From a virus (lineage: Duplodnaviria > Caudoviricetes): 64,000 nt of DNA. The position numbers were made by a program, and so were the translations under genes. The notes under the pieces were generated by a model. It was not told where the DNA came from. It searched no databases and saw only the letters and a list, made by a program, of their open reading frames with translations. The stretch spans positions 32,001 through 96,000 of IMG/VR virus record IMGVR_UViG_3300031857_023573; one strand, written 5' to 3'. Shown piece by piece: positions 558 to 63,913 of the stretch. How positions within the stretch are numbered: the first letter of the stretch is position 1; every line of letters begins with the position of its first letter.

Positions 558-587
558 AAAAACCTCTGAAAGTTCAGAGGTTTTTTT
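558..587. terminator. Bidirectional intrinsic terminator
   Basis: AAAACCTCTGAA-AG-TTCAGAGGTTTT with A/T tracts, between convergent genes. Confidence 0.85.
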
Positions 588-1401
588 ATAAGTTATCACT
601 ACAGTAACCTTCTTCATAGGATTTTACAGCTCTATCTAACTCATCATAATGAATTACTAGTCTATCTTTATCGTTTAGATCTTCTTCATCTTCATGATAA
701 AAGTCCGCAATTACTATTATTTCATCATTTGTTAAAAAACCAAATGAAACAAATCCAAGTTCTTCAATGTCTTGAGAGTCTATTAGCCTCTCAGCTTCAA
801 TCACTCCTCTTTCTTTTAGCATCTTTACAATATTTTCTTGAGCTTGTTTTAATGGGCTATTTTCTTTTTGAAATCTTTTTTTAGCCTCAATAAGTTCATT
901 TGTAATTATGTAGTGATACATACTTAGCCTCAGACTGAATGTACCAAATTCTTTAAGATTATTACCAGAACCTATAAATGGAACCTCACTTACAGTCTTG
1001 GTTTTGACATTAAGGTCTTCAGCTTTACTGATTCTACCAGAACACTCTTCGAATATCTTAATGAAATTTGATAGATTGTCCAAAAAATCTTTATATTTAT
1101 CAGTATCCATGTAATAACTTTTAGAATAGTCGTTTGTTGGATTTTCAATTTGTTTTGTAAAAGAGATGTCGTATGAAATTCTGATACCATCATCTGACAT
1201 TTTTGTTCCTTCAATTTTTTGTTGACTGAACATTTCAGACGCTATTTGAATTTCAAATCCTTCATCAATAAGATCAGTGAAATAATCTTTAATTAAAGAA
1301 TCTGGTAGTCTATATTTATCCTCTATTTGATAAAACTCCTCACTATTTTCAAAATGTATTGTATTAGATTCTAGAAATTTACTCCATTTAAAAATTCTCA
1401 T
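586..1401 (-). CDS. Hypothetical protein with capsid-targeting-like leader (MRIFKWSKFLES)
   Basis: 271-aa acidic ORF; AATATATA 5 nt upstream of ATG (motif at 1407-1414). Confidence 0.75.
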   Translation of the reverse strand: MRIFKWSKFLESNTIHFENSEEFYQIEDKYRLPDSLIKDYFTDLIDEGFEIQIASEMFSQQKIEGTKMSDDGIRISYDISFTKQIENPTNDYSKSYYMDTDKYKDFLDNLSNFIKIFEECSGRISKAEDLNVKTKTVSEVPFIGSGNNLKEFGTFSLRLSMYHYIITNELIEAKKRFQKENSPLKQAQENIVKMLKERGVIEAERLIDSQDIEELGFVSFGFLTNDEIIVIADFYHEDEEDLNDKDRLVIHYDELDRAVKSYEEGYCSDNL

Positions 1402-1420
1402 AATTGTATATATTATGAGT

Positions 1421-2191
1421 CTATTTCCAAATTTCTTCTAGGTCAATTTTAGCAGTGACATCAATTATTTGCGAGTCTCTTTTAAGTGAATATCTACCTA
1501 TTTCAGATAACTTTTTGACTATCTTTCTGATATATTTTCTATCAGACTCTGGAATATCAAAATTAAATATTTGTATTAGATTATCGATTTCTTGAAAAGA
1601 CAATGTTGATTTGTTACCAAGAAAGTATAGAAAATCATAAGAGTAAGTATTATAGGATTCAGAATTAGGATCATCTGATTTTGATACAAGGAAGTGTGTT
1701 AATGAGTTTTCAATACCTATTGATGGAACAGAGTATTTATAACCATTAAAGTTAAATTCTTTGGTTTCTGTGTCATACTTTTCAATTAAATCAAGTTCTG
1801 GTTCGTAATAATTGAAAGTTTCAGATTCGAAATTTATTAGTTCATCTTTTCCATTTGTATCGTTAAAATAGTTTAATTTTATTGGTTTATTATTTGTAAA
1901 CTTGACTATCTCTAAAAATAGGAAAACAATATCTATACTTTTTATATCGTTGTAAGTATAGTTTTTTGATAAAATAACATTTTTTTCTACAATCTTTTTA
2001 AGTCTTGTAATTACTGAACCAAGATTTTCTTTGTTGTACTTATATTCGTATTCGATAATGTCTTCGATTTTGGCTTTTTTGATATAGAGTTCAAAATCGT
2101 CTTTGTAAAAAAGTCCTTGTGAAGGAAGGTAAATTACTTCGATTTTTTTTTGAACATTTAAAATACCTTTAATAATCGATATTAAATTCAT
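1421..2191 (-). CDS. Putative baseplate hub assembly protein (T4 gp26/gp51-like)
   Basis: LPSQGLFY followed by IKSIDIVFLFLEI resembles the LPSxG...D(I/F)xYxFLxI pattern of T4-like gp26-type proteins. Confidence 0.5.
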   Translation of the reverse strand: MNLISIIKGILNVQKKIEVIYLPSQGLFYKDDFELYIKKAKIEDIIEYEYKYNKENLGSVITRLKKIVEKNVILSKNYTYNDIKSIDIVFLFLEIVKFTNNKPIKLNYFNDTNGKDELINFESETFNYYEPELDLIEKYDTETKEFNFNGYKYSVPSIGIENSLTHFLVSKSDDPNSESYNTYSYDFLYFLGNKSTLSFQEIDNLIQIFNFDIPESDRKYIRKIVKKLSEIGRYSLKRDSQIIDVTAKIDLEEIWK

Positions 2192-2200
2192 TTAATTTAT

Positions 2201-3313
2201 TTAGTTTTCTTGAAGTATTAAATAAATAGTTTGAGCAAATTCATTTATTGGTACTTCATCAAATATCTTTTTATCTTTTAATTCAACTTGAACTAAATTT
2301 TTCTTAACATCATACTTTACGTGTATTATATAATGTTTTGACTTGTAATTTATATCAAATAAATAAAAATAGTTTCCTTGATGTTGCCAATCAGCTTCTA
2401 TTTGAAAATCCTCTAGTTTATTAAACTCGTTGAATAATTCAGAAATTGATCTAGTTTCATCTGTTGAAAAAAGAGGAAAAACTTTTTCTCGAATAGTATC
2501 TAATAGTCTCTTTGCCTCCAAATTAGGATCAGAATTTAGGTTTAATTGAAATGTTAGATTCATTGAATTTGTTTTCTCACCAATCTTTTTTAGATTATTT
2601 AGAGTATCATAATGTATTGGTAAACTATCTCTCATCCAAGTTCGGAAAATGAAATCTGGTTTATCTAAATCTAAATCTTGTATCCATCTATCATTTAGAT
2701 TCCTTGAGCTATTGAAGAAAAAACTTGTTGATATTTTATAATTTAAATAATTAGATTCAATATTCTCTCTATTTAATTTTAGATTTACTCCAAGTTTACT
2801 TAGATATTTTCTTATCCATATAGTCAGACTTTTGGTGTTGCCAAAATCATCGGTTGTCAGATCTATAACTGATGTGTAAGGATTGTCTTTTATCTCCCAT
2901 ATCTCATCTTCTATTGAGTATTCAAACTCACAAATAAATTTTAATACTTGATACTCTTTTTCATTGCAAATCACAAATTCATTTATTGGGAATGATTGTA
3001 ATGATATACATTTAATCTTCTCATCAAATTCTAAAGATAATGTAGATTCGATTCTTGGTGATATACTATCAAATTCTTCTTTTTCAATTCTTCCATTGAA
3101 TGATACTAAGTAACTTCTAAATTCTAAGTCGTCACTAGAATATTCACTCCTTTTTAAATCGTGACAAGTTATTTGATTATCATTGATTGCAATAATTGAT
3201 TGGTGAATTACTGGAACTATTGATTCTTCTATTTCAGAAAGAATAATATCTTCTACTGTGTCTTTTATAAATGATAACTCGTTATAATCTTTGAATTCTA
3301 ATAGAAGCCTCAT
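2201..3313 (-). CDS. Hypothetical protein with leader MRLLLEFKDYNE
   Basis: 370-aa ORF; TATATATA at 3321-3328, 7 nt upstream of ATG. Confidence 0.75.
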   Translation of the reverse strand: MRLLLEFKDYNELSFIKDTVEDIILSEIEESIVPVIHQSIIAINDNQITCHDLKRSEYSSDDLEFRSYLVSFNGRIEKEEFDSISPRIESTLSLEFDEKIKCISLQSFPINEFVICNEKEYQVLKFICEFEYSIEDEIWEIKDNPYTSVIDLTTDDFGNTKSLTIWIRKYLSKLGVNLKLNRENIESNYLNYKISTSFFFNSSRNLNDRWIQDLDLDKPDFIFRTWMRDSLPIHYDTLNNLKKIGEKTNSMNLTFQLNLNSDPNLEAKRLLDTIREKVFPLFSTDETRSISELFNEFNKLEDFQIEADWQHQGNYFYLFDINYKSKHYIIHVKYDVKKNLVQVELKDKKIFDEVPINEFAQTIYLILQEN

Positions 3314-6115: not shown

Positions 6116-7645
6116 ATGTCAATAAATATACAAGATACATTTAAAGTTAACATCGGACTTCCAATCGACTCCAGGATTGTAGCAACAACTTCTGCAGTTA
6201 GAGATGCTATTACATATAAATATGATGGACTTAGTGTATTCCAATTAAGTGATAGAAAGACATACACTTGGAATGCGAATACTGCTACTTGGTCAGGTAC
6301 TGCTGATTTCGTGGGTGCTGGTAATGTGGGTTATCTGGCACGTTTTAGTGATGTTAGAGGACTTACCTCCTCAGCATTATATATGACGACTGGTTCTACT
6401 CCACTAAAGGGTAAAATAGGTATAAATACACCTAATCCGCAAGAAATATTTCAAATTAACGTTGATACAGGTAGTGCTGATCCTTTTGTTGTTTCTCAAG
6501 CTACTAATACGATTCTAGCACTTAACTGGTACAATGATGGAACTGATAAATCGTTTTCAAATGCAAATCCGTCTGCTGCAATAAAATTTAGAAGAACTGA
6601 TGGAGCAATACATTTTCTTAGTAGGGCTGCAAGCACTTCTGCTTTAGATTCAAGTGATACATTCAATGTAAATAACGTTTTAGCAAGATTTTCACTTGGT
6701 TCTATAAATTTCACTAGAGATTTGAATTTCAACAATGCTAACAGCGGTTCAAGTGCCGCTTATATTAGAGCTACTGGATCCGTCGTGTCATCTTTTTCGA
6801 CTAAGTCACTTCCAGACTATACCTGGAATAGCGATGGATCTACAGGTCTTTATCATCCAGCTTCCGCCAGAATTGGTTTTGCTATCGGTGGTCAACAGAA
6901 AATGGTACTTAACGCCAGTGGCTTACTTATAAGTTCAGATGATACAGCAGTAACAACACCGTCAAGCAGACTACACTTACACAACTCAACTGCTGCTCAA
7001 ACATATTTACAGATATCAAATGTTAATACTGGTAGTGGTGCGAACGATTCGATGCTTGTTGGAATAAGTCAAGAGGGTTGGCCTCAGATTCAAAGTAGAT
7101 GGGATAACAAACCATTTTTAATTAGATTTTCAAATGGTAATACTGGTGGTGGTAATTTCTTCCGATTCGAAAGAAACTATTTCACAATTTTCTCAAACGA
7201 ATTAGGAAGTGGTTTTAGTGAAATGACTTCAAATGCCTACGACCGTGTGATGTATGGAACTAGAAATTTTAACTGGTTTTCTGAGGCAAGTCAAGCATTC
7301 AGAACCGTTTTTCAACTTACATTACCTAGTAGTTCATCTGTCATTATTGAGTGTCAATTTAACACGTCGATAAATGCTAGTGGAAACAAACAGTTTAGAA
7401 ACCAGAAATCAATATACGCTTTTACAGTAAACTTATCAGGCGCTATACAACAATTGCCTGGTAGTCCTGATCTTATTTCAGAAAGTGCTTCTTCAAGTAT
7501 CTCATTTATTGGACAATCACAAGTTGTGTCTGCTGGTGCAAATACTTTAGCGTTTCAGGTAAATTTAGGTAATGGTGCGAATGGATGGTCAGGAAGATCG
7601 GTTGTTTCTTTTACATCAACGGTCAACAGATACCAAGGGCACTAA
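6116..7645 (+). CDS. Tail fibre-like structural protein
   Basis: N-terminal PIDSR..R..I.YKYDGLSV motif; GKIGINT.NP and RIGFAIGG..KM.L repeats typical of fibre shafts. Confidence 0.6.
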   Translation: MSINIQDTFKVNIGLPIDSRIVATTSAVRDAITYKYDGLSVFQLSDRKTYTWNANTATWSGTADFVGAGNVGYLARFSDVRGLTSSALYMTTGSTPLKGKIGINTPNPQEIFQINVDTGSADPFVVSQATNTILALNWYNDGTDKSFSNANPSAAIKFRRTDGAIHFLSRAASTSALDSSDTFNVNNVLARFSLGSINFTRDLNFNNANSGSSAAYIRATGSVVSSFSTKSLPDYTWNSDGSTGLYHPASARIGFAIGGQQKMVLNASGLLISSDDTAVTTPSSRLHLHNSTAAQTYLQISNVNTGSGANDSMLVGISQEGWPQIQSRWDNKPFLIRFSNGNTGGGNFFRFERNYFTIFSNELGSGFSEMTSNAYDRVMYGTRNFNWFSEASQAFRTVFQLTLPSSSSVIIECQFNTSINASGNKQFRNQKSIYAFTVNLSGAIQQLPGSPDLISESASSSISFIGQSQVVSAGANTLAFQVNLGNGANGWSGRSVVSFTSTVNRYQGH

Positions 7646-8334
7646 TTATCAACCTCTTCAAACCACCAGTTGAAATAAACAAAGTTGTCACCAGTCAAGG
7701 TATATTGATTACTATCATATTCAAAAATTAATCTACCGTCATATGATTTCAAAACTTCAATTATTGAGTTTTGTGGAAGTCTAAGTAATTTACCAGTGAG
7801 GTTTGAATAACAAATGACCTCATCTTTTAGTAGTTTGAACTTACCAAATTGAGGTTTCATCCAGTTTTTGATATGTTTGATAATTAATCCCTTGGTTTTG
7901 ATAATCCATTCTTTTGTTTGAAGTAAAAGATGGTCTTTGAATACCTCTGATTTAAATTCTGGATTATTTAATATATCTGTAATAACGCCCCAATATTCAT
8001 CTTCGTCAATTTTAAAACTTAAATAAACATCATACTGAAAACTACTTGATTTCACTATTCTAATGATTTTTACATTTGAAATTTCTTGGTCTTCTAGTGA
8101 AAGTTTTGACTTTAGTGTTTTATAACCTTGTGTATTCTGAAGAGCTCTTGAAAGGTTTCCAAGTTTTGATATTGCTTGTCTTACTACATCTTCGTGTTTG
8201 TCAAATGCATTAATAGAAAGGCTAGGATCATCAACGTGAATTGATGCCCTCACACTATCGGAATTCAATCTTTGGTAGTTGAACTCAGTCGATTCATTTA
8301 CAAGAAATTTTTTGTAATTCGATATTCTTTTCAT
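7642..8334 (-). CDS. Hypothetical protein with leader MKRISNYKKFLVNES
   Basis: 230-aa ORF; shares a palindromic TATA motif with the divergent gene at 8392. Confidence 0.75.
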   Translation of the reverse strand: MKRISNYKKFLVNESTEFNYQRLNSDSVRASIHVDDPSLSINAFDKHEDVVRQAISKLGNLSRALQNTQGYKTLKSKLSLEDQEISNVKIIRIVKSSSFQYDVYLSFKIDEDEYWGVITDILNNPEFKSEVFKDHLLLQTKEWIIKTKGLIIKHIKNWMKPQFGKFKLLKDEVICYSNLTGKLLRLPQNSIIEVLKSYDGRLIFEYDSNQYTLTGDNFVYFNWWFEEVDN

Positions 8335-8391: not shown

Positions 8392-8697
8392 ATGAAGATT
8401 AACAGATTCAATGAAAGTGAAGTTCAAAATTTATCCTCTGATAGAACAGACGAGATTATAAAAAGTCTTCAAGAACTATCAGTTTTAATAAATCAAAAAG
8501 ATGAGATAATTGAGTCATTAATAAATGAGTTAAATAATTTTAGAGATGTGTCTAAGTCTAAAAATGATCAAATTGACGATTCAATTTCGAATTTACAAAT
8601 TGTAAAATCTAGTTTTGTTGAGTCACTTGATAAAATGAATAACGTAGTTATCAGTTTGAACGATTACAAAGAGTCGGGTAGAAAATACTTATATTAA
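8392..8697 (+). CDS. Small helical protein with leader MKINRFNES
   Basis: 101-aa ORF, WXG100-like size and helical composition; followed by a terminator. Confidence 0.7.
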   Translation: MKINRFNESEVQNLSSDRTDEIIKSLQELSVLINQKDEIIESLINELNNFRDVSKSKNDQIDDSISNLQIVKSSFVESLDKMNNVVISLNDYKESGRKYLY

Positions 8698-8700
8698 TAA

Positions 8701-8730
8701 AAAAGTCCTCAATTTGAGGACTTTTCTTTT
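8701..8730. terminator. Bidirectional intrinsic terminator
   Basis: AAAAGTCCTCAA-T-TTGAGGACTTTT between convergent genes. Confidence 0.85.
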
Positions 8731-9200
8731 TACTTTAGATAAGTAAGTTTATAAATTGTTTTATAAAAAAGAGCTATGATTTCATCTACAATATTGTGAA
8801 GGTGTGTATCTTCTGATGATATTGCCTTTCTTTCTTTCTTAATAAATTCTACATTTTCTTTTAAGTAGTCTAAAGATTTAGTTTCACTAGTAATTGAGGA
8901 ATCAATTATTTCATATCCTTCTACAATTCCGTATTGACCTTGATATGTCTCGATTAGATCATCAGTGAATTCTAAAATCTCATTATAAAATTCACCAAGT
9001 GCTTCGTGTTGCCATCCAGAACCCATATCACCTTGAACTTGAAGATGAAAAATATGTGAAACCTGTCTTACTTCAAATAACTTTGAAAAGAAGATTGCAA
9101 CTTCTGATTTTTCTATTTGAACTTCTGGTTCATTTTGAACAATTTCTTGTTCATTTAATTTTTCAATTTTTTGTATTTTAAAATCACTAAATCTTTTCAC
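8730..9200 (-). CDS. Ferritin-like / Dps-like protein (DUF5856-type) with N-terminal leader
   Basis: HIFHLQV...QHEALGEFY...TDDLIETYQG matches the Dps ferroxidase H..H...H..E......D..E pattern; GTG start; AATATATA at 9219-9226. Confidence 0.7.
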   Translation of the reverse strand: MKRFSDFKIQKIEKLNEQEIVQNEPEVQIEKSEVAIFFSKLFEVRQVSHIFHLQVQGDMGSGWQHEALGEFYNEILEFTDDLIETYQGQYGIVEGYEIIDSSITSETKSLDYLKENVEFIKKERKAISSEDTHLHNIVDEIIALFYKTIYKLTYLK

Positions 9201-9224: not shown

Positions 9225-9407
9225 TTATTTTGTCTCACCAATATTTTTGATGGTATATTCTGACTGTTCTTGGATTGACTGAAGAATTGAATCAGACATG
9301 TATCCGGCTTCTCCTTCATTTTCAGCAAAAATTTCTAGTTTTACTTCAGCAACTACTTCATATTTTTTCAAATATTTATTTTCTAATATTTTCGTGAACT
9401 TTTTCAT
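9225..9407 (-). CDS. Small hypothetical protein (MKKFTKILE leader)
   Basis: 60 aa; start overlaps the stop of the upstream gene. Confidence 0.65.
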   Translation of the reverse strand: MKKFTKILENKYLKKYEVVAEVKLEIFAENEGEAGYMSDSILQSIQEQSEYTIKNIGETK

Positions 9408-10477
9408 AAGCTTGCCTTTATATTATTTGCTTTCCTTTTTATTGTCTTGCCTTGAAAATTTATTCTTTTCTGCCAATATTTTAAAAATTCAAGACAATTC
9501 ATTTTATTCAATGTTTCAAAACTTATTACCGGTTGTGTTTTTTGATTATCACATTCTCTTTTATAAGTTTTTACCCACATATCTTTTATTCTATCTGCAA
9601 CATCAGATTCTATTCCTTTATAAGGTTCGTGATCAGAAATTTTACTTAGGAGTTCTTCATAATACTTTTCTGCGTTGAATTTTTCCATCTCATCTGCCTT
9701 TTTATAAATTCTGAACTCAGATAGCTCTTTTTTTGGATATTTTTTTATAAAGTAGTAAATTTCTTGAATATTTGCTCTTGTTTCATGAAATTCAGAAAAG
9801 TAAAGAAAATAGGCGAAGTTTGTCCAGAATTTCCAGATATTTTTTGGAAATTTCCAAATATTTTCAGCCCAGCTAAGTGTTGAGTTAAAACTTCTACTTT
9901 CTGGTCTTATTATTTTAGATTTCCTCTTAACTCTAACATAGTGCTCATAACAATGATGTAGCTCATGATAAACAGTTGAGTTTATATCATCTTCCAGAAT
10001 ATTCTTATAAGTTCTGTTTTTATAATCAAAATCAGGTCCAATATCAATTGAAATTCCTAAATAAATTATTACAGAGTCGTCAGAAACTTGTTTGACTGGT
10101 TCAAGTATTCTTGAGTATCCAGACCAATTTTTATTACCGAAATACGATGCAAAACCACCTGTTTTAATTTCTAAATTTTTATCTGAAGTAGAAGGTGGGT
10201 ATTTTTTATCAAAATCTTTTTTTGATAGCTTATTAAAATCAATTTGTATTTCAAATTGTATTACTGGAAAATCAGACCAAAGTTCTTTATTATAAATAAG
10301 AGGATTTAATATTCTGTAGTCAATAGTTTCTATGGTTTGAAGTACATTTTCACCAGAATAAAAAAAATCAACAAATTTTGATCTAACTCTTCTGAATATC
10401 GTATTACTGAACATCAAGGATGATTCAGATACACCAAACTTTTCAAGTAAAAAATTCTGAAATGTTTTTAACCTCAT
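9404..10477 (-). CDS. Putative zincin metallopeptidase with leader MRLKTFQNFLLE
   Basis: YHELHHCYE (HExxH) plus downstream HETRA..QE (gluzincin-like third ligand); AATATATA at 10505-10512. Confidence 0.6.
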   Translation of the reverse strand: MRLKTFQNFLLEKFGVSESSLMFSNTIFRRVRSKFVDFFYSGENVLQTIETIDYRILNPLIYNKELWSDFPVIQFEIQIDFNKLSKKDFDKKYPPSTSDKNLEIKTGGFASYFGNKNWSGYSRILEPVKQVSDDSVIIYLGISIDIGPDFDYKNRTYKNILEDDINSTVYHELHHCYEHYVRVKRKSKIIRPESRSFNSTLSWAENIWKFPKNIWKFWTNFAYFLYFSEFHETRANIQEIYYFIKKYPKKELSEFRIYKKADEMEKFNAEKYYEELLSKISDHEPYKGIESDVADRIKDMWVKTYKRECDNQKTQPVISFETLNKMNCLEFLKYWQKRINFQGKTIKRKANNIKASL

Positions 10478-11056: not shown

Positions 11057-11323
11057 ATGAAATATTTAAAAATGTTTGAAGAATTTAGAATGAGTCCAGA
11101 AACTGCAGAACCAGTGATTGCACCACCTTCAACGCCAACAGAAACACCAAGACCTTGGAGACCAGTTCCAACTCAAGTTCCAAGACCTGGTACAGAAGAA
11201 AAACCAATGGGTTCGTTTGAAGAAGTTATGGATATTTTCTTTTATGAATTAGATAAGATTAAAGACACACCAGAAGGTCAATCAATTATAAAAAAATTAC
11301 AAGATAAATATGGCAATCTCTAA
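11057..11323 (+). CDS. Pro-rich small protein with leader MKYLKMFEEF
   Basis: 88 aa; two AATATATA copies upstream (11027-11034, 11041-11048); first of three coupled genes. Confidence 0.7.
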   Translation: MKYLKMFEEFRMSPETAEPVIAPPSTPTETPRPWRPVPTQVPRPGTEEKPMGSFEEVMDIFFYELDKIKDTPEGQSIIKKLQDKYGNL

Positions 11324-15977: not shown

Positions 15978-16301
15978 ATGAATCAAATGGATTTTGAAAA
16001 ATTGTTTGGTGATAATTCTAAAGATTATTTCGAATTGTTAATTAAGAAGTATAATTTAAAGCCAAAATATGTGGTTTATCAAAATGAACAAGATGAAGTT
16101 ATCGTTGATGAACAATGGACATCAGAAAATACTGAAAAAGTTAAAGCAAATAGAATTTTCAAATTTGATCCTAATTTTCTTGATTTAATTGAAGATGAAT
16201 GTGTAAATGAAGTTTTAGAAAAAGTAATAGAGCTGTATGTTTCTATTGAGGATTATGAAAATGCTGCAATAGTTAAAAATATTCTCGATTCTGAGTATTA
16301 A
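15978..16301 (+). CDS. Hypothetical protein with C-terminal UVR-like motif
   Basis: Ends LEKVIELYVSIEDYENAAIVKNIL; GATATATA 4 nt upstream of ATG. Confidence 0.65.
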   Translation: MNQMDFEKLFGDNSKDYFELLIKKYNLKPKYVVYQNEQDEVIVDEQWTSENTEKVKANRIFKFDPNFLDLIEDECVNEVLEKVIELYVSIEDYENAAIVKNILDSEY

Positions 16302-16477
16302 GACTTATAGTCACCGCCTCTTCTCTTTCTCTTACAATACTGAATTTGTGAAAAACCTCTTGGATTATTACAGTCAATTGACTTTTTATATTTAACAGAC
16401 CATCTTGATTTCATGCCTTTTCTTGGCTTGTTATAAGATTCATTTATAAACTCTTCGTATGTAAAGATATTATTCAT
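16298..16477 (-). CDS. 59-aa basic peptide with leader (absent from the ORF track)
   Basis: My translation: MNNIFTYEEFINESYNKPRKGMKSRWSVKYKKSIDCNNPRGFSQIQYCKRKRRGGDYKS; its ATG overlaps the TAA of the upstream gene (TAATG). Confidence 0.8.
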   Translation of the reverse strand: MNNIFTYEEFINESYNKPRKGMKSRWSVKYKKSIDCNNPRGFSQIQYCKRKRRGGDYKS

Positions 16478-16830: not shown

Positions 16831-16880
16831 ATCTTATATATTTATTTGGTAAATTACAATTTAGTTCTTAAATTAGCAGT

Positions 16881-23741: not shown

Positions 23742-23816
23742 AGTTTATATATTAGATTTCTTCGATATTAAACTTTCGGTTTAAATATTAATAAAAATAA
23801 AAACTAATTTAAAAAA

Positions 23817-46107: not shown

Positions 46108-46117
46108 ATACTATATA

Positions 46118-51853: not shown

Positions 51854-53725
51854 TCAAAAGTTTGGATTTTCTGACCGATATTTATCATATCTGTTAGTCA
51901 ATTCAATCAAAAACTTATTTCTTACAATATCTTCATTTTTGAATTCGAACATGAAGAGATCTTCCATTCCATCTGTCATTTTGATAAAATCAACATACCC
52001 AGAATCTCTCCTTTTTACATCATACTGTGATGTATCTCCCATCATAACTGCTTTTGAGTCTTTACCAAGACGTGTGGACCAAAGCATAAGTTGCTTGATA
52101 GATGCGTTTTGACATTCGTCGAGTAACATAATACAGTTATCATAGGTTGAACCTCTCATGTACGCAAGTGGTTCAAAAGTAATTTCTTCTATTGAAAAAA
52201 GCCAATCTATAGTTCCTCTATCTAAAATTTTACAGAAATTGGTATAATATGACTGCTTGTATGGATCAATCTTTTCATCTACTGTTCCCGGCAGAAGTCC
52301 AAGTTGCTCACCACTTTCTTGAATTGGTTTTGTTATTATGATTTTATCAATTTTTCTATCTGCAAGTAGTGAGAGTGCTGTGTAACACGTTGTAAAAGTG
52401 TTGTGAGTCACAATGTAATCATTTGTAAGATAAAGATGACTAGAGTGTTCGACTTTAATACACTTTGCTTCTTTTTTTCCGATGAATTTAGCACCAATGA
52501 TATATCTTGTAGGTCTGTATTTAGTTTTAGAAACTACTTTTTCAGATTTTCTTTTAAGTAGAAATGGATTAATATCTGGATTCATAGTTACAGTAATTGA
52601 GTATGAATTTTTTCCCATAATTTTTTCACCATCTTTATAATAGTATCCTTGAGTAGACTTTCTTTCAGTTGCAATTCCACCTAAAGATTGAACAAGTTCT
52701 TTGACATCATTAACTAATCTTTTTGATGTTGATGAAAAACTAACATATGTCCCATCATTAGAAACTGTGCCATCTGTGTCCATAATTCCTCTAAGTAGAG
52801 AAATTCTATTTTCCACAGTATTAAATTTATAAACATCTGGAATAAATTTATCACTAGACAAATTTCCCCATAGTTCAATTTTTTTAAGATATTGTTTTAT
52901 TTTGTTTGTACGAGAATCTTCTTTTTTGATAAGTGCATAGTCGTACTTTGTTCTTTTTGATACTTTAATATCACTATCTAAAAGACTCGTAATTGTATCA
53001 ATAATTTCACTATCTGCAGTTGTGAACCCAACGTGGTGTCTTAGGCAACCATCACCAATTAGACAACCCATAATATATGGGTGTATTTCTAATTCCTGTT
53101 CTATGAACTCAACTGGGTTCGTAATTGGTATTGTGTGGTTTATTCTACCTCTTTTTGTATAGAGTGTTTCTATTATTTCACTTGTTGTTTTTACAGTCCC
53201 TGGCTTTTGTTCTCTGTATCTAGTTCTTTGGCCATTTACTGTTTTTGTCCACTTTCTATTATTTCTATCATTTTCAGACTGTGTAACCCAAAGATGGTCG
53301 AGACAACATTCTACTGTCGTATTATCCGAAAACTTGAGTTCCCAAATATCTTTTTTACCTTGTGGAAAAACTCCAACAATATTGGTCTCTTTACCATCAA
53401 TTGATACTACTTTATCACCGATTTCAAGCTGACCCATAGTAGTCCATCCGGTCGGTGTTAAGACTGGTGAATCGAGAGGTTGTGCCTTACTAGTTCCAGC
53501 AGGGCCGTGAACCACAGTAAGGGTATTGTTTCTAATACCTTTATAAAGATCAGTTTGCTTGTCAGATAATCTTACACCAGTTGAATTTTGGAAAGACTCT
53601 TTGGTTAGAGAAGCTCTTTTTCTTTGAAGTTTATCAACTTCATATTCTCTTAAGCTTTCATCAATCTCTCTTTGAACTTGAGTTCGTTGACTTTGCTTTG
53701 TTTTAGAACGTTGTTGTCGAGCCAT
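51854..53725 (-). CDS. phoH: PhoH-like ATPase interrupted by an intein
   Basis: HGPAGTSK|intein|TF; KIIITKP; LGLLPG...EK..PY; PLAYMRGST; LDECQNA; GDTSQYD; IVRN. Spliced product 261 aa. Confidence 0.92.
   Translation of the reverse strand: MARQQRSKTKQSQRTQVQREIDESLREYEVDKLQRKRASLTKESFQNSTGVRLSDKQTDLYKGIRNNTLTVVHGPAGTSKAQPLDSPVLTPTGWTTMGQLEIGDKVVSIDGKETNIVGVFPQGKKDIWELKFSDNTTVECCLDHLWVTQSENDRNNRKWTKTVNGQRTRYREQKPGTVKTTSEIIETLYTKRGRINHTIPITNPVEFIEQELEIHPYIMGCLIGDGCLRHHVGFTTADSEIIDTITSLLDSDIKVSKRTKYDYALIKKEDSRTNKIKQYLKKIELWGNLSSDKFIPDVYKFNTVENRISLLRGIMDTDGTVSNDGTYVSFSSTSKRLVNDVKELVQSLGGIATERKSTQGYYYKDGEKIMGKNSYSITVTMNPDINPFLLKRKSEKVVSKTKYRPTRYIIGAKFIGKKEAKCIKVEHSSHLYLTNDYIVTHNTFTTCYTALSLLADRKIDKIIITKPIQESGEQLGLLPGTVDEKIDPYKQSYYTNFCKILDRGTIDWLFSIEEITFEPLAYMRGSTYDNCIMLLDECQNASIKQLMLWSTRLGKDSKAVMMGDTSQYDVKRRDSGYVDFIKMTDGMEDLFMFEFKNEDIVRNKFLIELTNRYDKYRSENPNF
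52400..53485 (-). mobile_element. Class-3 intein (362 aa) with LAGLIDADG homing endonuclease
   Basis: Starts at Ala (AQPLDSPVLTPTGW), ends THN before Thr+1; WCT triad (DHLW, AKCIKV, VTHN); LAGLIDADG motifs YIMGCLIGDG and LLRGIMDTDG. Confidence 0.9.
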
Positions 53726-53798: not shown

Positions 53799-54747
53799 AT
53801 TGTTCATCTTCATACCATTCATCGTATTCTGGTTCAGGCTCTTCTTCTATTCTTTCAAGTCCACCATCGTTTTGAACTAGTATATAATCCCATCTAAATG
53901 ATCCGGAATTAGACAGGTATCCATTCACAGTATCAAAGTATTTAAAAGTATCGATATATGGGTAGTAATTAAACTGTTTGTTTTCTAATTTTATTTTAAG
54001 ATCAAGTTTTTTTGGTTCACCATCAACTACAAAAATACGTTCTGATTTAGCAGATTGTTCCCACTTATAAATATATCCGTTTTCTTTTGCCCAAGTTTTG
54101 AATGCTTCTACTTCATGATCATAGACTGAATAGATTCTATCCATGACTTTATAAGAATTTCCGTCTTTATCTACAGCAGATTCCCAGAGAAGAGCTCTTG
54201 TTATAAGTCTATCATTTTCATCTACGTGAATTAGCATCTTTACTTGCTGTGGATTATTTGAGTAGATACTCATGAATTTGTTTTTTTCTGGGTATCTCAT
54301 GCAAGAATGCCAGAGAGTACCGGGTGTCAAACCATTCGGGGTGGAGTAGTTGTCTTCTAAGTACCATTTTTTAATTTCTTGACCTTCTACTATTTTAAAC
54401 TCATTAATATTTGAGTTAAAATAGCTTTTATAGATATTGACATAGAATTCAATATCAGAGTCTTTTACATTAAAAAGATTAATAGCTTCTTTTCTCAAGA
54501 ACTTTTTAATAAATCTGCCGATTTTCATTTTAGTTCTATACTTTGACTCATTGGCGTCATTAATTGAAACTAATTTACTAGATGGAATAAATGAAATAAA
54601 ATCATCGTTTTCAACTTTGATAAAATCCCCTTCTTTTTTTACGAATCTTTCTGATTCAAAAGTTAGAATAGCACTTATTTTTGAGATTTGTAGAGTATCT
54701 CTTGTAAAGTTTCTAAACTTATCATCTAAATTGAATTGTAGCATCAT
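53797..54747 (-). CDS. Phage protein with SCMR motif (PcfJ-like), function unknown
   Basis: TLWHSCMRY, ITRALLW, MDRIYS, YYPYIDTF motifs recurring in large-phage hypothetical proteins. Confidence 0.6.
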   Translation of the reverse strand: MMLQFNLDDKFRNFTRDTLQISKISAILTFESERFVKKEGDFIKVENDDFISFIPSSKLVSINDANESKYRTKMKIGRFIKKFLRKEAINLFNVKDSDIEFYVNIYKSYFNSNINEFKIVEGQEIKKWYLEDNYSTPNGLTPGTLWHSCMRYPEKNKFMSIYSNNPQQVKMLIHVDENDRLITRALLWESAVDKDGNSYKVMDRIYSVYDHEVEAFKTWAKENGYIYKWEQSAKSERIFVVDGEPKKLDLKIKLENKQFNYYPYIDTFKYFDTVNGYLSNSGSFRWDYILVQNDGGLERIEEEPEPEYDEWYEDEQ

Positions 54748-54760
54748 AATATATAGTTTT

Positions 54761-54985
54761 ATGAACTTTTTATTTGAGTTTAAAAATTATTATAATCCTG
54801 GTGATATCGTACTTATCGAATATTGGTACAACGGTATGATAACACCTGTAAAAATTTTAGAAAAAGTTTCTAAAAAGTCTTATTTAATCTCTCACAACAT
54901 TCCCCAGTCTAAAATACATTTGGCACCTGATGAAATTATTAAATCATCAGATATTATTGACACTTTTAATAAACAAGTGAATTAA
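54761..54985 (+). CDS. 74-aa SH3/KOW-like protein (MNFLFEFKNY...)
   Basis: ATG at 54761 is in frame with track ORF 54551-54985 and lies 5 nt after AATATATA (54748-54755); PGDIVLIEY. Confidence 0.7.
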   Translation: MNFLFEFKNYYNPGDIVLIEYWYNGMITPVKILEKVSKKSYLISHNIPQSKIHLAPDEIIKSSDIIDTFNKQVN

Positions 54986-56311: not shown

Positions 56312-56953
56312 ATGATAAAAACAATTAAAAGTTTGATGCTGGTATTGACAATGGTATTTGCCTTCAATTTTGCAAGTGCTCAAAATACCTGTTGTACTAA
56401 AAATGGTACTAACGTTCTACCAGAAGCAGGCGAATTCTCAATTGGAATAGATGCAGTTCCAGTTTTAAACTATTTCGGAAATTTCTTTAACAACTCTGGA
56501 AACACAGCAGCTGTTGGTTTCCAACAAGCTGGTGTTATCACTGGTTCTTATATGAAGACTGCAAATACTTCATATCGTGGAAAATTAGCTATCAACTATG
56601 CTACTTCAACTGTAGATTCTACTGATACCCAATCAGCTGGTGTTAATGTAGGAGCTGGTATTTTGAAGTATCGTGGCAAAACTCGTCTACAAGGTTACTA
56701 TGGTGCTGAAGTAGGACTTGGTTTTGGTAGCGGTAAAGTTACAGTAAGTGGTACTGAAACTGAAACACCTTCAACTCTTGGTGTTAATGCTCGTGCATTT
56801 GTTGGAGCTCAATATTTCTTTGCTCCAAAAATGTCAGTTGGAACAGAATACGGTTGGGGACCTGGTTTCTCTAAAGTGGGTGACAATAAATCATCTTTCA
56901 ACCTTGGTGTTGATAACATGGGTGGTTCTATCTACTTGAACCTTTTCTTCTAA
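56312..56953 (+). CDS. Outer-membrane beta-barrel protein with signal peptide (probable start ATG 56312)
   Basis: MIKTIKSLMLVLTMVFAFNFASA-Q signal; alternating amphipathic strands (FVGAQYFFAPKMSVGTEYGW); C-terminal Phe. Confidence 0.8.
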   Translation: MIKTIKSLMLVLTMVFAFNFASAQNTCCTKNGTNVLPEAGEFSIGIDAVPVLNYFGNFFNNSGNTAAVGFQQAGVITGSYMKTANTSYRGKLAINYATSTVDSTDTQSAGVNVGAGILKYRGKTRLQGYYGAEVGLGFGSGKVTVSGTETETPSTLGVNARAFVGAQYFFAPKMSVGTEYGWGPGFSKVGDNKSSFNLGVDNMGGSIYLNLFF

Positions 56954-58094: not shown

Positions 58095-58124
58095 AAAAAG
58101 AGAGTCATTTGACTCTCTTTTTTT
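58095..58124 (+). terminator. Intrinsic terminator (bidirectional shape)
   Basis: AAAAAGAGAGTCA-TT-TGACTCTCTTTTT. Confidence 0.9.
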
Positions 58125-58136
58125 ATATATACTCTT

Positions 58137-59510
58137 ATGAGACTTAAAAAGTATCTAGAATTTATCAAAGAATCTGTAAAAAACGATTCAATGTACTGGA
58201 TTAGTGAAGATGAAATTAAAGATATTTTCAAATTCATTACTGATGAAGGTTATCCACTCAGTATCACAAAAGTGCTTTTTGGCCATTCTGGATATTCTGA
58301 GCACGGTAACAATCACATTAGAAATTCAAAAGAATTAGTCTTGTTTGATATAAACCAAGATGATGTTGTACTAAGAGGTGAAGAGTATATGCCTGGATAT
58401 AGAATATCAATCATTATAAGTCAGTCTAAAGGTGACAATGTAACAGATGAATTTCGAAGTGCTATTTCTCAATTAAAAGGCGAAGGGTATGTAGTTGATA
58501 CAGTTGAAGATGAAGATGGTAAGACTAATTTGGAAAATATACACCTTTTAGATGGTTCTATTGTGACTTGGATACCAGAAACTCCTAACAAACCATTTAC
58601 TACCGATCCAGATGAGATGTCAGATGGTGATGTTTATATCAGTTCTTCTGAACTTGTCATTTTAGTTCATCAACCAGAAGAGGTTAAATTTACCGAGAAA
58701 ATGTTGGCTGAAATCTATGACTGGAAATGTGATAGAATAGAAGGCGACAAAATCTACTGTCATGTTGATATAGAAGATATGGCAAGATCTGTTCTTTCAA
58801 GAAGAGATTATGAAAGATGGGGTAAAATGCTAGAAGAAGGAATCGATATTGACAACTACTATGGAGAAGGCTACTATCCAGACATAAGTAGTGTTTTTCA
58901 ATATACACTAAACAAAGAAGCAACTACTCTATTAGTAAAAGTAATTATTAAAGAGTTAGGCGGCCTTGAATCAGCTCTCACTGAACTTGAAGGTGAAGAG
59001 ATCTATGAAAGTCTTTCTGGAAAGTCCGAAGACGAGGTTATTGATATTCTTTTAAAAGAAAGATTTAAAAGAAGTTTAGAAAAACTATCACAAGATTCTG
59101 AAATAATGTCAACAGTTAGAGAAACTATTGCAGATTGGGAAAGACAAGCACATTGTGACGCAAATTGGGATGAATTGATATCTGAATTTGATGAAATTGT
59201 ATCAGATGTCACTGAATATACTAAACTTGAAAAAGAAGTTGATAAGTACTACATGAAGAAAGACACTCGTGAAAAAGTTTGGTATAAATCAGTAGTGACT
59301 CATTATGAGATACCATTTCAAGATAAATGGATTGAAGAGTATGGAAAGTCACTTAGAGGATATTCACTTGATGCACTATTTCAAGAATGGTGTTCTGATG
59401 AATATTTAGATTACAAATTGGAACCAAGATTTAATGACTGGGGTGACGTTGATTCTGATGCCCTAAATAAAGAGATTATATCAATATTAAACTACAATTT
59501 AAAGTCCTAA
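58137..59510 (+). CDS. Acidic hypothetical protein with leader MRLKKYLEFIKES
   Basis: 457 aa; TTATATATA 5 nt upstream of ATG. Confidence 0.75.
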   Translation: MRLKKYLEFIKESVKNDSMYWISEDEIKDIFKFITDEGYPLSITKVLFGHSGYSEHGNNHIRNSKELVLFDINQDDVVLRGEEYMPGYRISIIISQSKGDNVTDEFRSAISQLKGEGYVVDTVEDEDGKTNLENIHLLDGSIVTWIPETPNKPFTTDPDEMSDGDVYISSSELVILVHQPEEVKFTEKMLAEIYDWKCDRIEGDKIYCHVDIEDMARSVLSRRDYERWGKMLEEGIDIDNYYGEGYYPDISSVFQYTLNKEATTLLVKVIIKELGGLESALTELEGEEIYESLSGKSEDEVIDILLKERFKRSLEKLSQDSEIMSTVRETIADWERQAHCDANWDELISEFDEIVSDVTEYTKLEKEVDKYYMKKDTREKVWYKSVVTHYEIPFQDKWIEEYGKSLRGYSLDALFQEWCSDEYLDYKLEPRFNDWGDVDSDALNKEIISILNYNLKS

Positions 59511-59687: not shown

Positions 59688-59720
59688 GTCTCAAATATAC
59701 AAAATTTTTATATATAAATC

Positions 59721-60224
59721 ATGTTAAATTTTAACGATTTTATAGAAGAATCTTATCTTGAATCAAATTTTGCACCAATATATCATTTTACAAATAATTA
59801 CTACCTTCTTACAATTTTAAGAGAAAATGTTTTAAAAGTTGGTTGGTTTGATAATCCTTTCTTTGGTAAGAATGTTAAAATTGTTTCATTTACTCGAAAT
59901 AATAAACTGAATGTAGGTAATTATAAAACTGATTTAAATGTGATACTATGTGTTGATAAAAATAAAATGTTATTAGATGGGTATAAATTATATCCATATG
60001 ATTACTTCATTCAAAGTGGCAAAGAGATCCATACAAAATCTAATATTTTAAGATCTAAACCTTTTGAATTTGAAGAGGCTTCAAATGTTGATATTATCAA
60101 CATAGATAAGTATATTATATATGTTGATTTTCTAGAAGACTCTCTATTTGACTCATCAACATCTATCAACATTTTAAAGAAAAAAAATATACCAATTTAT
60201 GAAGCCGGTAGAAGATTATTTTGA
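59721..60224 (+). CDS. Putative ADP-ribosyltransferase-fold protein with leader MLNFNDFIEES
   Basis: IYHFT ... VSFTRN ... FEFEE spaced like the H/R - S-x-T - ExE signature of ART folds; TATATA motif 4 nt upstream. Confidence 0.45.
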   Translation: MLNFNDFIEESYLESNFAPIYHFTNNYYLLTILRENVLKVGWFDNPFFGKNVKIVSFTRNNKLNVGNYKTDLNVILCVDKNKMLLDGYKLYPYDYFIQSGKEIHTKSNILRSKPFEFEEASNVDIINIDKYIIYVDFLEDSLFDSSTSINILKKKNIPIYEAGRRLF

Positions 60225-61549: not shown

Positions 61550-61606
61550 ATAGGGAAGTTAATTTTATTTATATATATCTTATAAATAAAAAAACATTGA
61601 TGGTTT

Positions 61607-62680
61607 ATGATGTCCTGTAAAATAACATATATTTATGGTCTATTTGAAATTGGTACTGAAGAGGAGATACGATATGTTGGTAAAACTGACAATCCATCTA
61701 AAAGACTTAGAGACCACAGAAATGATAAGAATTCAACAAGTCACAAATCTTGTTGGATCAAAAGTGTTTTCAATAAAGGAGGTGATATTGGATTAAAAGT
61801 TTTTAAAGTAGTCAACCATGATAATTGGAAGGATGAAGAAATTAAATTTATAAAAGAAATGTCGACTAAATTCAAACTTGTAAATTTGACCGATGGTGGT
61901 GACGGTCGCATGGATAATATTTATAACAGAACCTTTGCTGAGTGTAAACTGTGGTTAGAATCTAATAAACCCGAGTGGATAGTAGGAATGAAAGAATACA
62001 AAAAATGGTCAAAAATGAATGATTTTCCAGACTTTTTACCGAAGGCACCGAATCGTGTTTTTACTGACTGGACCACTTGGGGCGATTATTTGGGAACAGG
62101 AAGTATTCATACGATGAAGAGAAAAGATATTTATCTAAGTTATGAGGAAGCGAAAAAATACTTGAAAGAAAACTTCGATTTAAAAAGTTCAGTTGACTTT
62201 AAAAAAGAAAAAATTCCAGTATTTATTCCCAAAAAGCCCTATAATGTTTATACTTGTTGGAAAGGATGGCATGAATTTTTAGATTATGTTCCCTTTAAAA
62301 GAATAAATGCTGAATATCTTGACTATGATTCTGCCAAGTTATGGATAAGTGAAAATTTTGGTCCTATAACATCAAAAAATTATAGAGAAAAATCCAAAAA
62401 TAATGAGATATCAATTTTTTTACCGAGAAAACCGGAGAGAGTCTATGAAAATTTCAAATGGGGTGAATTTCTATCTACTAACGGCAGGAAAAAGAATAAA
62501 AGTTTCTATTTGAGTTACAATGAATCTGTGAGTATTGTTCATACTTTGAATATAAAAACCAATGCAGAATGGCGAAAATGGTGTAAAAACAAACCAAAAG
62601 AATTTGTTAGAATACCATCTTCGCCAAGTACTGTTTATAAAGGAGAGTGGAAAAACTGGTTCGAATGGTTAGGAAATTGA
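61607..62680 (+). CDS. GIY-YIG endonuclease with tandem phage-integrase-repeat-like units (homing endonuclease-like)
   Basis: TYIYGL...RYVGKTDNPSKRLRDH; 4-5 repeats of (S/T)(Y/F).EAK......P..P..VY..W..W..(F/Y)LG. Confidence 0.75.
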   Translation: MMSCKITYIYGLFEIGTEEEIRYVGKTDNPSKRLRDHRNDKNSTSHKSCWIKSVFNKGGDIGLKVFKVVNHDNWKDEEIKFIKEMSTKFKLVNLTDGGDGRMDNIYNRTFAECKLWLESNKPEWIVGMKEYKKWSKMNDFPDFLPKAPNRVFTDWTTWGDYLGTGSIHTMKRKDIYLSYEEAKKYLKENFDLKSSVDFKKEKIPVFIPKKPYNVYTCWKGWHEFLDYVPFKRINAEYLDYDSAKLWISENFGPITSKNYREKSKNNEISIFLPRKPERVYENFKWGEFLSTNGRKKNKSFYLSYNESVSIVHTLNIKTNAEWRKWCKNKPKEFVRIPSSPSTVYKGEWKNWFEWLGN

Positions 62681-63403
62681 ACCTTTAGATAGAACTTCTT
62701 TATTATAATATTGTTCGAATCCATCCAATTGTTTTTCTACACTATCATTTTTATCTAAACCAATAATCTCATCTATTAAACCAAAGTCGAGAGCTTCTTT
62801 TGAATTAAACCACCTGTCTCTTCTTGATGACTCTAACATATCTTCAAAAGTTTTTCCACAATTTTTAGCAAGTAATTTAAAGAGTATATAGTTATACTTG
62901 TGTGACTCAAGATGTGATATAGTAGAGTCTTGTATATTTCCACCATATTGTGATGATACCATATGAGTCATAACTTTTGAATAAATCAATGATGAACGCT
63001 TTCCTTTAGTCCCAGAGCTTAATAGCACCGATCCCATACTAGCACACATTCCGATATTAACAGTTGCAACATCACAAGAGATATAGTTCATTAAGTCAAC
63101 TATACCGAGTCCACATAGAACTGAACCACCAGGTGAATTAATGTAAAGAGTAATATCTTTCTTTTCAACAGAATCTAGAAAAAGTAACTGTGCTTGAACA
63201 ATATCTGACATGTGTTGATCAACTGGACCAGAAACCCACAAAATACGGTCTCTCATCAAGCGACTAAAGATATCTATTTGCGTGGCGCGCATTTCACGCT
63301 CCTCCAAGATATAAGGAGTCAATCCATTTTCATATTGATCAAGTGCAGTAGAAGATACACCCTCACTTTTTGCAAATTTTCTAAATTCTTTTCCTAAGTT
63401 CAT
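62669..63403 (-). CDS. clpP: ATP-dependent Clp protease proteolytic subunit
   Basis: DIFSRLMRDRI, LYINSPGGSV, CASMGS (Ser), VMTH (His), RDRWF (Asp); N-terminal LTPYILEER extension of Bacteroidota-type ClpP. Confidence 0.95.
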   Translation of the reverse strand: MNLGKEFRKFAKSEGVSSTALDQYENGLTPYILEEREMRATQIDIFSRLMRDRILWVSGPVDQHMSDIVQAQLLFLDSVEKKDITLYINSPGGSVLCGLGIVDLMNYISCDVATVNIGMCASMGSVLLSSGTKGKRSSLIYSKVMTHMVSSQYGGNIQDSTISHLESHKYNYILFKLLAKNCGKTFEDMLESSRRDRWFNSKEALDFGLIDEIIGLDKNDSVEKQLDGFEQYYNKEVLSKGSIS

Positions 63404-63463
63404 AAATATAAATTTTTTATTAAAAATTATAAGTACGAATTAGATGAAAGTTGAAGGAATAAA

Positions 63464-63913
63464 TTAAATAACATGAGAAAGATACTGACCTTCTTTTAAT
63501 TTAATTTTTTTACAGCCAATTTGATTCTCAAGTTCCTCAATCCAATTTTTCCAATTATCATTTAATAGTTTAATAAATGATTCTGAACTATTTCTATCTT
63601 TGTATCGTTGAATATACTCGTCTTTTATTAAGATATCTGGATAAACGAGTGTGAAATCTATTTTATTATTAACAAGAGCCTCTCTAACTTCTTTATGTGA
63701 TGAAACCATAATAACATCTACCTTACCGATATTACTTTTGATATGTTCAATGTAATTTCTTGGGAAATCAGATTTATCAAATTTACTTGAATCAGAATCT
63801 AAAACAATTTTATCACTATTTGTTCTGAAAAAGTGTGATTTTCCACATCCTGGGAAAGCAGATATAACTAGAGTATCTTTTGTATTATAATCTGTATAGT
63901 TTTTTAATTTCAT
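63464..63913 (-). CDS. P-loop NTPase / nucleotide kinase-like protein
   Basis: VISAFPGCGKS Walker A, D.DSS.F; TATAAATA 5 nt upstream (63919-63926). Confidence 0.7.
   Translation of the reverse strand: MKLKNYTDYNTKDTLVISAFPGCGKSHFFRTNSDKIVLDSDSSKFDKSDFPRNYIEHIKSNIGKVDVIMVSSHKEVREALVNNKIDFTLVYPDILIKDEYIQRYKDRNSSESFIKLLNDNWKNWIEELENQIGCKKIKLKEGQYLSHVI

Follow-up and report, generated by a model that had tools for sequence, protein, structure and literature searches.

Why should some 20 otherwise unrelated proteins of one phage begin with much the same short peptide? The question is raised by a 64,000-nt stretch of a giant-phage fragment (positions 32,001-96,000 of IMG/VR record IMGVR_UViG_3300031857_023573), called the window throughout. 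A preliminary description of this DNA had listed about 20 open reading frames (ORFs), scattered over the window, with a common N-terminal leader, here called the tag, and had likened it to the capsid-targeting sequence (CTS) of phage T4. We found that the tag is a conserved peptide motif, that it recurs in related huge phages, and that it matches the residues of the T4 CTS mapped by mutagenesis. On balance, the shared N-termini appear to be T4-type capsid-targeting and processing propeptides, greatly expanded in this clade.

The N-terminal tag in the window and its relatives

All 20 of the N-termini quoted in the preliminary description were recovered at the start positions given there; the strand assigned to the ORF at 54761 was wrong, as this ORF lies on the + strand (54761-54985). 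For the ORF at 9200, the initiation codon is GTG, which orthologues beginning MKKFSDF support. The consensus proposed for the tag, M-[KR]-x(1-4)-[FY]-x-x-[FY]-x(0-3)-E, proved too narrow when read literally, matching eight ORFs of the window and just six of the 20 examples. Relaxing the pattern to a core of [FYW]xx[FYW]x(0-4)E, confined to residues 1-16, captured 13 of the 20 and three more real N-termini, including that of a ClpP-like gene. We then graded the examples, calling a tag complete when an aromatic pair is accompanied by [LIVMF]-x-E ending at residue 9-17. By this measure 13 are complete, five are partial (pair only or an atypical second position) and two are weak. An aromatic or hydrophobic pair three residues apart is present in 18 of the 20, two of these having Ile or Ala as its second member.

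The preliminary description had suggested comparing N-termini with internal positions and with shuffled sequence, and the motif withstood both comparisons. The core occurs in 16 of 70 window genes against 3.3% of internal 16-residue segments (binomial P = 8e-10), and a strict skeleton, [FYW]xx[FYW][LIVM]xE, occurs in 7 of 70 genes against 0.18% of internal segments (P = 6e-11). Composition-preserving shuffles of the N-termini gave a mean of 4.1 core matches and a maximum of 11 in 2000 shuffles, compared with 16 observed. Moreover, the core stood at background in two further controls, decoy ORFs (5/171) and internal Met sites (8/210). Synonymous codons replace one another inside the motif (AAA, AGA and AGG for K/R; TTA, CTT, CTA and CTC for L; TTT and TTC; TAT and TAC; GAA and GAG), so the conservation lies at the level of the peptide.

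Megablast of 24 kb of the window against a phage collection gave zero nucleotide matches. Protein searches identified as its neighbors the huge uncultivated phages LR745206.1 (634 kb) and LR756502.1 and a related 195-kb IMG/VR contig, which we label G001. Proteins common to the window and these relatives are ∼27-75% identical, and LR745206.1 is syntenic with the window across the tagged region. Remoter relatives, judged by capsid protein, are the 735-kb LR756501.1, the Lak phages, and Tenacibaculum phage PTm1, which at 29% identity is the closest relative in cultivation.

We trained a 10-column matrix on the window N-termini alone by iterative refinement, which placed the greatest weight on F/Y at both pair positions, and then applied it to other genomes. 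In G001, 16 of 227 N-termini scored at least 10 bits against 0.16% of internal segments (45-fold), and in LR745206.1, 40 of 942 did so against 0.20% (21-fold); a 42-kb stretch of LR756501.1 also held several tags. The strict skeleton was found at 27 N-termini of LR745206.1, where 4.1 are expected. In contrast, the matrix showed no enrichment in 100 kb of Prevotella phage Lak-C1 (25.7% GC, TAG read as sense; 2/127) or in the whole genome of PTm1 (29.7% GC, Flavobacteriia host, T4-like head; 4/312). Since neither of these phages is enriched, the motif is specific to one clade and does not reflect AT-rich coding or Bacteroidota translation as such.

The tagged proteins have little else in common. 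Pfam and PHROG scans of those in the window found no family common to all, and most have no family; 83 tagged proteins of the relatives, when aligned, have a mean column identity of 5%, save for their IKKF..F..E start. Within single families, the tag is strongly conserved. The best-studied, that of the ORF at 58137-59510, has >200 metagenomic homologues, and the tag is kept in 116 of the best 120; F9, I10, E12, and S13 are invariant wherever a homologue includes the N-terminus. The first 13 residues rank fifth most conserved of 444 windows along the protein and are followed by a hypervariable linker at residues 14-19. In the AlphaFold2 (AF2) model of this protein (mean predicted local distance difference test, pLDDT, 87.7), residues 1-20 have values near 50 and are detached from the fold; the predicted structure had no significant fold match in the PDB or the AlphaFold DB clusters. 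In the family of the ORF at 9404-10477, F6, F9, and E12 are invariant in 28 of 28 full-length homologues while the x positions vary freely, and H171, E172, H175, and E178 (HExxH..E) are invariant as well. Its AF2 model has a pLDDT of 83.2 overall and below 50 at residues 1-11, placing the tag outside the fold.

Orthologues retain the tag despite changes in linker length, and the L-N-E site can come to lie farther from the aromatic pair. In those of the ankyrin-repeat protein at 12744-14726, the pair and L-N-E-N are both retained, five residues farther apart; the mature part of the protein at 45754-46107 is ∼70% identical to orthologues starting MLKRYSQFIKEA and MIKKYLQFIKEA, from which it differs in the lengths of tag and linker. 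Such mobility would fit separable targeting and processing parts.

Relation to the T4 capsid-targeting sequence and the head module

The T4 CTS is likewise an N-terminal peptide of ∼10 residues on otherwise unrelated proteins (IPI, IPII, and IPIII), cleaved by the prohead protease gp21. Amber-suppressor mutagenesis assigned its targeting mainly to residues 4 and 7 and its processing to residues 8 and 10 (Mullaney and Black 1996, as reviewed in PMC9026906); CTS-like sequences occur on other T-even phage proteins too (PMC9026906). In MKTYQEFIAE, the mapped residues Y4, F7, I8, and E10 make up exactly the aromatic-x-x-aromatic-[LI]-x-E skeleton of the tag, with the aromatics three apart corresponding to Y4/F7 and the following [I/L]-x-E to I8/E10. 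When the window-trained matrix was applied to the first 150 kb of T4 (241 ORFs), gp61.1 ranked first, IPIII second, IPII third, and IPI sixth, with IPIII and IPII at 13.5 bits. IPII and IPIII have one common CTS, so this amounts to about two independent matches in the top six, a chance of order 5e-4. A separate observation concerns the top-ranked T4 protein: gp61.1 (NC_000866, 18966-19130), a 54-aa hypothetical protein of the early region, starts MKTFKEFIKE and outscores the known internal proteins. Judged by this start, gp61.1 may be an unrecognized CTS-bearing protein.

The tag also differs from its T4 counterpart. There are ∼20 tagged genes per 64 kb here and roughly at least 60 per genome in the relatives, compared with 3-4 in T4; the first aromatic most often falls at position 5-7 rather than 4; the spacer before the Glu ranges from 0 to 8 residues; and the cargo is not basic. 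Protease and scaffold form one polypeptide in this clade, and the scaffold is made of tag-skeleton repeats, a feature not known from T4 gp22. The host phylum here is Bacteroidota.

PHROG scans of LR745206.1 gave the gene order portal, 707-aa “head maturation protease,” and major head protein, and G001 has the same three head genes at 77-81% identity. The capsid protein of G001 matches T4 gp23 (E = 4e-9), and the N-terminal 200 residues of its protease match gp21 (E = 2e-4), including the His and Ser motifs (GEFDHP/GELNHP, VSSR). Proteases of the gp21 family cut C-terminal to Glu, after a short motif. The Pfam family PF03420 is weak in LR745206.1 and precomputed for several protease-scaffold homologues; a PF03420 profile search of G001 gave no match, although tblastn reveals the protease-scaffold gene there. 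A gp21-like protease with scaffold is present in the syntenic relatives G001, LR745206.1, LR756504.1, and LR756501.1, and >4000 protease-scaffold homologues occur in public metagenomes, marking the clade as abundant.

Beyond its protease domain, the fused protein forms a scaffold of ∼11 tandem 14-residue repeats, YSEY[IL]AENLDKNI. The unit is the same in all of these phages, and the repeats are kept in LR756504.1 and LR756501.1, down to 52% capsid-protein identity. The strict skeleton has 67 internal matches in the 634-kb LR745206.1, 11 of which fall in the protease-scaffold; every other protein has at most three. The capsid propeptide ends YAE[FY]HSINE^N (^, predicted cut), which aligns with the T4 gp23 cleavage site, L-T-E65^A66. 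Tagged genes also lie inside the head modules of the relatives and, in the window, behind structural genes. For the G001 protease-scaffold paired with residues 1-60 of a tagged protein from the same contig, a complex prediction scored 0.00 with low fold confidence and no alignments, and it was not used as evidence. As a further observation on the capsid propeptide, its first 25 residues are alike in the clade and in T4 (KQKAIKKWSPVLENMGV in G001, KAELLNKWKPLLEGEGL in T4 gp23); this stretch is a second tag-like element, W-x-x-[VL]-L-E, lying before the site of predicted cleavage.

An [AT]ATATATA box stands before the portal, protease, and capsid genes in LR745206.1 and G001 alike and before the fiber genes of the window. 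The same box precedes 11 of 23 tagged window genes; in LR745206.1, it is found before 52% of tagged and 21% of untagged genes (P = 2e-7), and in G001, it is found before 62 and 33%, respectively. This promoter motif suggests that the tagged genes are expressed late, at prohead assembly. Spacing between box and ATG is bimodal (4-5 or 20-29 nt). Boxes ending 4-5 nt before the ATG, which imply leaderless or near-leaderless late transcripts, are found at 13 of 71 genes in the window, 32 in G001, and 109 in LR745206.1. Behind host-type TAnnTTTG boxes, the tag is weakly depleted in LR745206.1 (3 vs. 13%, P = 0.017) and not significantly so in the window or G001.

Parts of this arrangement are found in other systems. 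phiKZ, 201phi2-1, and SPN3US package many different head proteins (∼50 or more in SPN3US), and some of these are cut C-terminal to Glu by gp21-related proteases (gp175, gp245). However, cleavage there follows S/A-x-E with almost no other determinants, whereas here L, I, or V stands two residues before the Glu; moreover, their propeptides are long and dissimilar, with no short common targeting peptide described, unlike the short motif-sharing tag. Encapsulin cargo-loading peptides are short and portable and steer diverse cargo into an HK97-fold shell. They resemble the tag as portable loading peptides but are usually C-terminal, bind the shell protein, and remain uncleaved, in a system from which scaffold, protease, and DNA are absent. 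PTm1 has a Bacteroidota host, ∼30% GC, and a protease-scaffold fusion beside a gp23-like capsid gene, as in this clade, but the tag is not enriched at its N-termini, and its scaffold repeat unit is different. The PTm1 protease-scaffold (AP019524.1, 217778-219547) contains aromatic-containing repeats of its own (…ESWIKYDFTKELSEGIEKWI…).

Proposed mechanism and competing explanations

As a propeptide of the T4 type, the tag would form a short amphipathic helix whose two aromatics, three apart, draw the protein into the assembling prohead core. The prohead protease, of the gp21 family, would cut at [L/I/V]-x-E, which adjoins the aromatics or is set off from them by a short spacer, and would free the mature protein in the head. 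The tag would act as a single scaffold repeat, co-assembling with the scaffold and being cut by the same enzyme, because the scaffold of this clade, fused to its protease, itself consists of ∼11 tandem Y-S-E-Y-[I/L]-A-E repeats. The phage would thereby probably pack its head with many more cargo proteins than T4 and would deliver them into the next host cell. For the phage of the window itself, we infer the same protease-scaffold as in its relatives. A broader proposal, that scaffold mimicry is a general loading device in which ∼12 “scaffold” codons suffice for co-assembly, trimming, and carriage to the next cell, is offered tentatively, as possible rather than probable. If it holds, at least 50 different proteins would be preloaded, including Acb1-like, NUDIX, RNA-ligase, and metallopeptidase-like enzymes, and the T4 CTS (YQEFIAE, compared with YSEYIAE in the repeat) would be a remnant of the same mechanism.

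The portable CTS-like tag envisaged in the preliminary description was supported by the skeleton, matrix, head-module, promoter, and fold-position results. Several points weigh against a propeptide of the T4 type. Unlike the T4 internal proteins, the tagged proteins have a median net charge just below zero; they show no more basic character than their untagged counterparts, and those of LR745206.1 are slightly more acidic. At 59 to 660 aa, the tagged window proteins do not form the small, basic, DNA-associated class of the T4 internal proteins. Seven of the 20 examples lack a canonical [LI]-x-E near the aromatic pair. The tagged fraction, ∼20 of 71 genes in the window and ∼6-7% of genes in the relatives, is unusually high beside the 3-4 proteins of T4. 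The head module lies outside the window, and protease and scaffold are seen in the relatives alone, at the protein identities given above; a homologue search and an IMG/VR scan yielded no copy that could be assigned to the contig of the window. The scaffold repeats score 3.5-5.4 bits on the full matrix and are not singled out by it, their likeness to the tag being that of the four-position skeleton; because they are copies of one unit, the match amounts to roughly a single event. The class with a box 4-5 nt from the ATG takes in most tagged genes, so a link to leaderless transcripts is argued away by reasoning. Finally, we infer both encapsidation and cleavage after the Glu from sequence.

Among the alternatives, the one that survives best, although we consider it unlikely, is a recognition tag for non-capsid machinery: a ClpP degron or adaptor site, a docking helix for a chaperone or FKBP, or a cellular-location signal, which would time or place late accessory proteins. 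The window indeed encodes a genuine ClpP-family protease and an FKBP, the conservation of the tag and its N-terminal place outside the fold are what one would also expect of a degron or docking peptide, and the lack of basic character in the tagged proteins sits well with such a role. However, it leaves unexplained the match to the four mapped residues of the T4 CTS, the recurrence of the tag skeleton in the scaffold repeats and where the capsid propeptide is predicted to be cut, and the place of tagged genes in head modules. Moreover, ClpP itself carries a tag-like extension, which suits cargo better than a reader of tags, and a ClpX-like partner was not seen within the window.

The tagged proteins might instead enter the prohead and be cut but serve head assembly, being degraded or expelled with the scaffold rather than delivered. 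This would agree with the likeness of the tag to a scaffold repeat, with a scaffold predicted to be cut into 14-residue pieces, and with the many small tagged ORFs that have no recognizable enzyme domain. Nevertheless, we regard it as improbable: the mature parts are well-folded conserved domains with invariant residues of their own, including HExxH, the tagged proteins of the relatives include anti-defense-type enzymes, and CTS-bearing proteins of T4 remain in the head and are ejected.

Very little weight can be given to an origin at the mRNA level, in which leaderless or near-leaderless late transcripts need particular first codons to aid ribosome binding and the result is misread as a peptide motif. 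Tags (matrix score of at least 8) are indeed concentrated among genes with a box 4-5 nt from the ATG: 8 of the 13 in the window and 10 of the 32 in G001 carry one, compared with 6-28% in other promoter classes. We reject this origin because many genes of the same class are untagged (the MTase, homing endonucleases, and fiber-like genes), because some tagged genes lie within operons or behind 20-29-nt leaders, and because conservation is at the amino acid level, with residue classes kept while synonymous codons vary freely and with just the four skeleton positions invariant within families. Equally AT-rich Bacteroidota phages also show no enrichment. A chance product of AT-rich starts, conceivable at ∼30% GC with N-termini rich in K, F, Y, N, I, and E, is refuted by the shuffles, the decoy ORFs, the internal Met sites, and the control genomes, as the matrix carries over to independent genomes and not to composition-matched controls.

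If the tag works as the CTS does in T4, its 7-residue skeleton would make it possible to tell, from sequence alone, the capsid-borne and first-acting proteins of giant phages that have not been cultivated. Such a cargo set is otherwise invisible in metagenomes and is likely rich in anti-defense and host-takeover functions, mostly without a known fold. The link between tag and scaffold repeat would offer a testable mechanism for the working and origin of the CTS, which in T4 is still undefined at the molecular level, and the tag could serve as a portable packaging handle.

Tagged genes, cargo, and neighboring features

Table 1. Features of the window. Tag grades are as defined in the text; ^ marks the predicted cut after Glu; the late box is [AT]ATATATA, with its distance to the ATG.
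Feature	Position	Strand	Length (aa)	Tag grade	N-terminus	Remarks
Tagged ORF	586-1401	-	271	complete	MRIFKWSKFLE^S	W6, F9, F-L-E11; late box 5 nt before ATG; orthologue found in neither G001 nor LR745206.1
Tagged ORF	2201-3313	-	370	partial	MRLLLEFKDYNE	pair F7/Y10; Y-N-E instead of [LI]-x-E; late box 7 nt before ATG
Tagged ORF	7642-8334	-	230	complete	MKRISNYKKFLVNE^S	orthologue starts MKRKN(R/K)LILEFTEFN
Tagged ORF	8392-8697	+	101	weak	MKINRFNES	one aromatic; orthologue starts MKIRRFNED, MKIKRLYEN
Tagged DUF5856 protein	8730-9200	-	156	complete	(V/M)KRFSDFKIQKIEKLNE^Q	GTG start; Pfam DUF5856 4.4e-15, residues 64-152
Tagged ORF	9225-9407	-	60	complete	MKKFTKILE^N	Ile at second hydrophobic position; orthologue starts MKKFTKIVEE, MRKFTKILEE
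Tagged ORF	9404-10477	-	357	complete	MRLKTFQNFLLE^K	invariant HExxH at 171-175
Tagged ORF	11057-11323	+	88	partial	MKYLKMFEEF	MK[YH]L..FE.[FY] subtype; full motif present in orthologues MRFIKNFEKFLES and MRFLKKFEKFNEE
Tagged ORF	11310-12737	+	475	complete	MAISKKFSQFLNE^A	Gly-rich linker follows; UVR motif C-terminal; orthologue starts MKNFSKFIKEE, MKNFKDFMNEE
Tagged ankyrin-repeat protein	12744-14726	+	660	complete	MLLRFQDFKLNE^N	Pfam Ank_2, 2.5e-8
Tagged ORF	16298-16477	-	59	complete	MNNIFTYEEFINE^S	
Tagged ORF	16477-16830	-	117	complete	MKHLLTFENYVFE^F	late box 4 nt before ATG
Tagged ORF	20671-21135	+	154	complete	MKYLKTFENYQINE^E	LR745206.1 orthologue starts MKYLKTFENYSPINEEEE
Tagged ORF	23352-23741	-	129	partial	MRYLYKFESY	aromatic pair only; late box 4 nt before ATG
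Tagged ORF	25337-25636	-	99	weak	MKYLRKYNEN	orthologue starts MKYLRKFNEN, MKYLRKYNES; late box 5 nt before ATG
Tagged ORF	25652-26602	-	316	complete	MIKKYQKYILE^S	orthologue starts MKLKKYIDFISES, MIIKKYIKFIKEN; directly downstream of 1306-aa fiber-like gene
Tagged ORF	45754-46107	-	117	partial	MNRIRKFTEAIE^A	directly downstream of 1829-aa structural gene
Tagged ORF	54761-54985	+	74	partial	MNFLFEFKNY	orthologue starts MKFILEYKSFYKE, MKFLNEYKSFYKE
Tagged ORF	58137-59510	+	457	complete	MRLKKYLEFIKE^S	best-studied example
Tagged ORF	59721-60224	+	167	complete	MLNFNDFIEE^S	late box 4 nt before ATG
ClpP-family protease	62669-63403	-	244		MNLGKEFRKFAKSE	Pfam CLP_protease 6.4e-52, residues 41-214
Large structural (fiber or baseplate-like) genes, untagged	26604-51607	-				[AT]ATATATA box before these genes
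PhoH-like ATPase, untagged	51854-53725	-	623			Pfam PhoH 7.7e-45, residues 442-613; LAGLIDADG_3, residues 308-361
Signal-peptide ORF, untagged	22403-22768	+				
Signal-peptide ORF, untagged	56312-56953	+				
Late-box examples (box 4-5 nt before ATG)	1402-1418, 16831-16846, 23742-23757, 46108-46123, 54740-54760, 58115-58136, 59700-59720					

The cargo labels of the preliminary description fared unevenly. The ankyrin protein was confirmed by Pfam, and the protein called Dps-like is the DUF5856 protein of Table 1. The “zincin” label of the protein at 9404 rests on its invariant HExxH and went unconfirmed, as a PDB fold search gave no significant match; the “ART-like” label found no Pfam support among the tagged proteins of the window. 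Pfam domains in the 83 tagged proteins of the relatives include NUDIX, SMODS-associated NUDIX, Acb1/2H, T4-type RNA ligase, PolyA_pol-type nucleotidyltransferase, cyclase, GNAT, methyltransferase, and ClpP, an enzyme set that would be compatible with host-takeover or anti-defense cargo. DnaB, a topoisomerase, and terminase (Glu absent or a late start) are likely false positives among the 83.

The start of the window ClpP had been noted earlier as only loosely similar to the tag. It is the tag-like beginning of a ∼40-residue N-terminal extension and also fits the relaxed core. LR745206.1 has two ClpP paralogues with similar starts, the orthologue (MDHGKDFKKYAMSE) and a second paralogue (MNQSKDFQNYLLSK). 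A packaged ClpP would be unusual.

The window as a whole is densely coding on both strands at ∼30% GC and combines a very large fiber and structural block, housekeeping-type phage genes, and many small ORFans. The earlier statement that greA, tilS, FKBP, phoH, and the MTase lack the leader holds, with Pfam identifying the untagged genes as MTase, GreA, a TilS-like PP-loop protein, FKBP, and PhoH. The PhoH-like ATPase is split by a LAGLIDADG homing-endonuclease or intein-like insert, and its N-terminal part matches helicase/terminase-type P-loop PHROGs. Two untagged ORFs carry signal peptides (…LSNAQQ, …FASAQN), which we take to be Bacteroidota-style, and one of the two is preceded by a host-type TAnnTTTG box. 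These signal peptides and the box are consistent with a Bacteroidota host and with an early gene class transcribed by the host polymerase.

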